The notes under the pieces are model-generated. The model saw nothing but the letters and a program-made list of their open reading frames with translations. It was not told where the DNA came from and did no database searches. A stretch of DNA of 64,000 nt. It comes from Raja brachyura (Eukaryota). A program made the position numbers and the translations under genes. Positions 25,897 through 26,025 of this stretch are shown piece after piece (the first letter of the stretch is position 1; each line of letters starts with the position of its first letter). Location of the stretch: positions 2,170,001 to 2,234,000 of the forward strand of contig OY740812.1 in assembly GCA_963514005.1 (NCBI GenBank). Direction: 5' to 3'.

Positions 25897-26025
25897 TTTT
25901 TTTTCTCTCTGGCGTTGACCTTGCGTTTGGCCTAAAGTTGTATTTCATCTTTTGTTTGTGCACATCGGGTTCATTGCATTAGTCGAAACAGGGTGGACCA
26001 CGTGAAGGTTGCAATCTCCCACCCT
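25897..26025 (-). mobile_element. Short retroelement headed by a minimal HDV-like ribozyme (copy 1)
   Basis: Minus 26025-25972 reads AGGGTGG GA GATTGCA ACC TTCACGT GGT CCACCCT GT TTCGA CTAA TGCAATG. The body (gtgcacaa...acaactttaggc...acgcca) is shared with 61444-61582. Confidence 0.75.

Follow-up and report, generated by a model that had tools for sequence, protein, structure and literature searches.

The minus strand of the window (the whole stretch of 64,000 nucleotides analysed here) carries, between Hox genes, a sequence that can be drawn as a self-cleaving ribozyme, which raises the question of whether it serves the Hox cluster or belongs to an element of another kind. An initial annotation had regarded it as the second, better-paired copy of an HDV-like ribozyme element, possibly able to cut read-through or lncRNA transcripts of the Hox strand. 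The answer reached here, in which we have good confidence, is that the sequence is a decayed copy of a short retroposon made from the two ends of a probable Vingi-type LINE, that its predicted HDV-type head likely released the element RNA, and that this copy is likely a poor cutter and likely has no Hox function.

Numbered on the minus strand with 26025 as position 1, nucleotides 26025-25972 fit a 54-nt double pseudoknot of the HDV/CPEB3 type without P4. In the predicted fold, P1 is formed by positions 1-7/30-36 (26025-26019/25996-25990), P2 by positions 11-16/48-53 (26015-26010/25978-25973) and P3 by positions 17-19/27-29 (26009-26007/25999-25997), with L3 at positions 20-26 (26006-26000). 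G37-U38 (25989-25988) is followed by a 5-nt loop in place of the P4 hairpin, and the predicted catalytic C44 (25982) opens J4/2 (C44-U-A-A); the predicted cut site lies 5' of 26025. All pairings and motifs annotated initially (P1 7/7, P2 6/6, P3 3/3, L3 UUCACGU, GU, UUCGA and CUAA) were found at 26025-25973, and L3, which had been likened to the CPEB3 loop, is identical to the loop of the Rfam CPEB3 consensus. The P1.1 and L3 core (C22-G37, U21.U38, U20.G25) is present as well. The window copy differs from its family at A1 and G54, so that the G1.U wobble at the cleavage site is replaced by A1-U36; the family has G1 in 50 and C44 in 54 of 60 copies. The pairs U38-A43 and G37-C44 could close a UUCG loop and thereby hide C44.

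A pseudoknot descriptor matched the window once, at 25972-26025, against a background of 0.04 matches per window in 100 dinucleotide shuffles and of 0 under a strict minimal form, a test that is partly circular because the descriptor was shaped with the element at 26025 in view. Searching the whole window against Rfam at E<=1 revealed no ribozyme family. When a short stretch was searched, RF02682 aligned exactly to 26025-25972 (19.8 bits, E 0.12), and the scores of the mini-element family stayed far under its cut-off (19.8 and 17.5 bits vs 44); RF00622 (cut-off 35) gave no match on the window element. The nested folding energy of the 54-mer, calculated with a model that leaves the pseudoknot out, equalled that of shuffles (z 0.0), and a 12-nt motif search performed at chance level (5 found vs 3.6 expected).

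The fold is the head of a repeat. At 25920..26025 (minus strand, 106 nt), the window contains a decayed copy of a non-autonomous, bipartite retroposon of ~135 nt, in which the 5' end of a LINE is fused to a LINE 3' end. Behind the fold, on the same strand, follow a remaining segment of LINE-derived 5' UTR (25947..25971), which is seen with identical letters behind the fold of LINE copies, L170 among them, and a junction remnant with LINE-derived 3' tail (25920..25946), which has internal deletions of ~15 and ~9 nt and has nearly lost its (GAA)n. The copy is enclosed by a target-site duplication of 13 bp (5' copy at 26026..26038; 3' copy at 25906..25918, 11/13 identical). The originally annotated span was thus right on the 26025 side, whereas its other end lies at ~25920 rather than at 25897, the letters 25918-25906 being duplicated target site.

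Using the element as query, a genome search yielded 2131 candidates, of which 40 were scored, each 91-100% identical. An 18-nt junction word had 12,035 exact genome matches (reversed control, 0), giving an estimate of ~19,500 copies after correction for 2.6% divergence, and the unmutated 54-nt head of the window copy's subfamily was found at 118 genome places. The family is also carried by contigs from four other organisms, many of which (373, 431, 206 and 183 contigs) have their loose ends at 26024.

For a closer view of the boundaries, the sample consisted of the first 70 entries in a list of 100 places, every one of them on contig C1; selection used a site lying 75 nt downstream and took no account of the 5' end. 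Removal of 7 segmental duplicates left 63 copies. The 5' end was G1 in 55/70 sampled copies; after deduplication, it coincided with the predicted cut site in 48/63 copies and lay <=3 nt away in 57/63. The sampled copies terminate in (GAA)n, and target-site duplications of 8-18 bp flank 43/60 of them, compared with 9/294 mismatched-flank controls. The duplication ends exactly at -1 in 22 of these 43 copies and is <=1 nt off in 34. Every pair and core base was intact in 21 of the 63 copies. With both LINE ends but no ORF, a tail and target-site duplications, the element has the make-up of a bipartite non-autonomous LINE derivative (SIDE). The base at -1 of the insertions (L173-L242) was a pyrimidine in 49/60 copies (T 34, C 15), which would reflect a preference for certain targets, arising either from the endonuclease or when the second strand is joined. 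Six near-identical loci (L217-L222) within ~270 kb of contig C1 hold the same insertion in a segmental duplication. A candidate variant family with a G-C P3, searched for in G000, was rejected: its 5 matches have letters resembling those of mutated mini-element copies.

In the mini-element, LINE nt 1-~78 are connected through a short linker to the final ~45 nt. Its 3' part resembles the end of an ORF, and a pattern for the predicted LINE C-terminus, which excludes the short element, retrieved 46 longer copies sharing the tail. One copy of ~3.1 kb, L170, starts at nt 8 of the head and further contains endonuclease, RT and tail. All LINE copies examined were broken and none was intact, and G1-G7 were kept in 1/8 LINE-type 5' ends. 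Among the proteins listed, the nearest intact one, P0001 (1019 aa), is a single ORF with APE followed by RT and without RNase H, and most of the 120 listed relatives likewise have APE and RT but no RNase H. This arrangement, together with the length of L170, agrees with the definition of Vingi as a compact element with a single ORF encoding APE, then RT, and no RNase H (PMC13708176). As judged from its sequence, the partner LINE is likely of the Vingi type. Neither the search for protein relatives nor the PDB search returned a named Vingi protein (the latter gave L1, R2 and group II RTs alone), and the named match consists of a 5' end alone. RTE, Ingi, Vingi and R2 elements all have bipartite derivatives on record (PMC5786205). 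The same LINE gave rise to a second, independently deleted mini-element, in which nt ~94 is joined to the tail with a clean junction (22/30 loci, L094-L122), and one LINE copy (L099) has its head beside inverted ORF pieces, as in a 5' inversion.

Related heads were found in the same genome and in metagenomes. In G000, RF00622 produced 41 rows, 32 of them over the cut-off and the best at 65.8 bits, compared with 0 in 14 control genomes. The 25 loci that were opened (L328-L352) represent four repeat families distinct from the mini-element, with heads that exceed the cut-off for CPEB3. One of these (L349, L351, L352) has a 5-nt loop replacing P4, different stems and a GAA tail. At L332, the ORF directly behind the head is 33-37% identical to Vingi-like proteins, and at L331, L340, L341, L344 and L348 pieces of a Vingi-like ORF lie inverted beside the head (5' inversions). 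Relatives of P0001 in metagenome assemblies comprised 80 loci. Heads located directly before the ORF (L321, L304 and others) share with the mini-element the spacing, L3, the GU and C-N-A-A, differ from it in their stem letters and have a full P4; L321 scored 25.2 bits on RF00622 (cut-off 35). Among 17 metagenome loci reaching the ORF start, 8 had an L321-related head, several of these being truncated or decayed, one (L243) had another HDV-like form and 8 had none. The L243 head (L243:439-576), from a Vingi-like element, shows an HDV-like fold with a long insertion within L3, and the heads of L265, L264 and L309 belong to a lineage with a 6-bp P1.

Covariation was assessed in 12 heads from the sister families and metagenome LINEs, hand-picked for intact 5' ends. 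Altogether, 94% of cells were paired, with changes on both sides in 12/17 pairs, including all 7 of P2; since the 12 rows represent about six lineages, paired cells are not independent events. Only 2/500 shuffles scored as high, and slid controls gave <=5 pairs. G37, C44 and U20-U21-C22 were invariant, leaving the P1.1 and L3 core unchanged in all rows and C44 in 12/12. Covariation among related LINE heads therefore speaks for interpreting the fold as HDV/CPEB3-like. Within the mini-element family, common variants in the fold affect the unpaired positions 8 and 45 (2/54 sites), compared with 5 of the next 21 sites, and an A/G variant at position 32 preserves pairing (U-A or U.G).

These features suggest a route by which the element may have spread. 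Source copies would be transcribed by read-through or from an internal promoter; the head would then fold, and C44 with Mg2+ would cut 5' of G1, freeing the element RNA from longer transcripts. The endonuclease/RT of the LINE would bind the 3' tail and insert a unit-length copy by target-primed reverse transcription, after which inserted copies would decay neutrally. NARTc and the R2 SIDEs have been reported to follow a comparable route (PMC3383444, PMC3414825). By analogy with L1Tc (PMC3383444), an internal promoter beside or in place of cleavage is a possible source of the precise 5' ends. In its strong form, in which the promoter sets the 5' end and the loss of P4 has left the fold slow or inactive, as a relic, this explanation appears improbable, though it survives best among the alternatives. 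It can draw on L1Tc/NARTc, where promoter and ribozyme lie within the same 77 nt (PMC3383444), on the weak Rfam score of the fold and on the potential pairing of G37 with C44 across the 5-nt loop. However, minimal HDV-like ribozymes without P4 are active in vitro (PMC10879173), a second family of G000 (L349, L351, L352) combines the 5-nt loop with other stems, and subfamily changes avoid the stems and C44.

Cleavage as the probable means of release is best placed beside other known systems. NARTc and RIME, the L1Tc/ingi derivatives with the Pr77/L1TcRz ribozyme (PMC3383444, PMC4035085), are likewise short, contain both LINE ends and have an HDV-like fold with its cut site (predicted in the mini-element) at +1, and Ingi and Vingi are sister clades; the mini-element differs in its vertebrate host, its 54-nt head without P4 (77 nt with P4 in NARTc/RIME) and its (GAA)n tail. 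The R2 SIDEs of Drosophila (PMC3414825) also join a 5' ribozyme to a LINE 3' end, lack a Pol III head and show compensatory ribozyme changes. Compared with these, the mini-element is dispersed, with >12,000 copies and 8-18 bp duplications, has an APE-type partner and carries a far shorter predicted ribozyme. Bipartite Vingi derivatives of the Vingi-1_EE type (PMC5786205) similarly arose by internal deletion, their source being a LINE that has one ORF with APE and RT and lacks RNase H. As for the fold itself, minimal HDV-like (theta) ribozymes (PMC10879173) resemble it in lacking P4, in their short J1/2 and in having the catalytic C first in J4/2. Nearly all theta ribozymes occur in gut phages, often beside tRNAs, whereas the mini-element is a vertebrate retroposon whose cut site is flanked by varied target-site duplications and not by a tRNA 3' end. 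In the same paper, a search of eukaryotes (human, mouse, protists) is reported to have found no minimal HDV-like ribozymes (PMC10879173). If our reading is true, Vingi joins the LINE clades that have a 5' ribozyme, and the P4-less minimal HDV-like ribozyme gains a eukaryotic home and job. For gene-writing platforms, which employ Vingi-1 UTRs (PMC13708176), a 5' end that cleaves itself would matter in designing the template.

The family also resembles the CPEB3 ribozyme (RF00622; PMC4836649, PMC8233481), with which it shares G1.U36, U20.G25, L3 UUCACGU, a C-N-A-A J4/2, a P1.1 built from a single G-C and a single U-U pair (G37/U38) and identical spacing of positions 1-38. In contrast to CPEB3, its P1, P2 and P3 letters have changed by compensation, P4 is lacking, and the element is mobile and multi-copy; it has no RF00622 score, whereas the sister families do. 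Where CPEB3 is a single conserved copy in an intron of its gene, the window element is intergenic and one of many. By eye, the 5' end of Vingi-2_Gav, as printed in the supplement of PMC5786205, agrees with the Rfam CPEB3 consensus at 38/40 positions (2-41) and at 14/14 positions at the 3' end. The body of SINE2-1_AMi, a crocodilian SINE derived from a 5' end of the Vingi-2_Gav type, is near-identical to the CPEB3 ribozyme core. These similarities in sequence suggest that sister elements with near-CPEB3 heads likely gave rise to the CPEB3 ribozyme, the direction being deduced from mobility and breadth rather than from a tree. We lean towards the broader view that Vingi carries a CPEB3-type 5' ribozyme, of which the mammalian CPEB3 ribozyme, linked to memory, would be a domesticated head, and that it shrank here to an active 54-nt form without P4, present in thousands of intact copies. 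The CPEB3 ribozyme is, according to PMC8233481, unreported outside mammals, and Vingi-like heads would, if this view is true, provide outgroups for it. The accessible portions of PMC5786205 and PMC13708176 describe no Vingi ribozyme, and the search did not extend to subscription journals, Repbase notes, patents and bioRxiv supplements. Papers treating both Vingi and CPEB3 were not found within the same limits (subscription journals, Repbase notes and patents lying outside). Studies by Ruminski 2011 and Kojima 2011 may already cover Vingi or Ingi-like ribozymes.

The window copy itself is a worn member of this family. The second copy, at 61445..61584 (plus strand), belongs to another subfamily (G32, CGAA), retains a full (GAA)n tail and was inserted in another repeat; it has two private mismatches, P1 6-31 and P2 14-50. 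Similarity between the two copies does set in at the ribozyme's first base, as proposed, or immediately before it, and there are indeed two copies in the window, although they are merely two of many thousand and do not form a pair. Their mismatches are complementary, solely because each shows private decay from a shared family, and the U-A/U.G difference in P1, which keeps pairing, is a subfamily trait like CUAA/CGAA. Describing the copy at 26025 as better-paired is misleading, as its seventh P1 pair, A1-U36, replaces the G1.U36 wobble of the family; the six P2 pairs exist, but the family P2 has 7 bp, of which G10-C54 is lost here (C54G). In CPEB3, G1A by itself is enough to bring cleavage down from 92% to 3%, and mispairing with upstream sequence makes it ~250-fold slower (PMC8233481); A1-U remains a purine-pyrimidine pair, and the CPEB3 result may fail to transfer. 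Pairing of the flank 26033-26027 with 25988-25982 (positions 38-44), which would trap C44, has a predicted probability of 0.99 in nested folding (family median 0.04; >=0.5 in 10/47 copies), a figure that leaves out the competing pseudoknot (duplex energies, -5.8 vs -4.5 kcal/mol for P2). Given A1, this inhibitory flank, C54G, the 3' deletions and an orthologous contig without C44, the supposed better pairing is a sign of decay, and the window copy likely cuts poorly.

The orthologous position, which had been suggested for inspection, shares the insertion in organisms B, C and D, where contigs bridge flank and element, and the insertion is consequently older than the split from these organisms. 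Organism B has 13 additional letters at 25936. In organism D, in the 30-nt loose end of a single contig, P1' runs directly into P2' without 9 nt including C44, and the orthologue appears to have lost its catalytic C. No empty-site joint was detected in four sequencing runs; run X13 had no junction coverage.

As annotated, the element has the sense orientation of the Hox cluster. It is flanked by a group-13 homeobox, whose exon (49187..49393, minus strand) ends 23 kb upstream, and by a group-10 homeobox, which in window coordinates lies at -25918. We take the upstream gene to be HoxB13, the Hox names being based on motifs and cluster order. Starting with the group-10 one, ten more homeoboxes, at window positions -25918 to -101618, are all on the minus strand. 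The proposal that the copy has been kept as a regulator, cutting Hox-strand read-through or lncRNA between HoxB13 and HoxB10, is in keeping with its sense orientation, the presence of all stems and C44, the insertion common to organisms B, C and D and the precedent of CPEB3 as a head retained in a host gene. We nevertheless consider it very unlikely, as it is opposed by G1A, the lost P2 pair, the predicted inhibitory flank and the loss of C44 in organism D (one contig), and the notion of a superior ribozyme that cuts Hox transcripts is, on the same grounds, not supported. Moreover, the 224-kb Hox region contains 2 copies of the mini-element, with ~1.6 expected at genome-wide density, and the B13-B10 gap is repeat-rich, whereas hardly any repeats occur in the B10-B2 core; one ~100-nt repeat, very common elsewhere and suggestive of a cartilaginous fish as the probable host, reached 10 matches per 10 kb in the gap and gave none from -90 to -20 kb. 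The Hox location is therefore likely due to chance, without a Hox function for this copy, and its meaning for the locus is small: the B13-B10 gap tolerates repeats, and this worn insertion is an ordinary one among them. Finally, the idea that an ordinary SINE head happens to show HDV-like pairing by chance, favoured by a descriptor tuned on the window element and a folding energy no better than that of shuffles, is refuted by covariation (distant LINE heads share the positions 1-38 spacing, core letters and compensatory stem changes) and disagrees with an element boundary at the predicted cut site, unless the related heads are actually unrelated.

Two sources of spurious microRNA matches were noted in the window. 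Inverted pairs of the ~100-nt repeat (window 26244-26342 and many other places) give rise to such matches, and a long inverted repeat at window 59455-59780 produced a spurious match to MIR7533.
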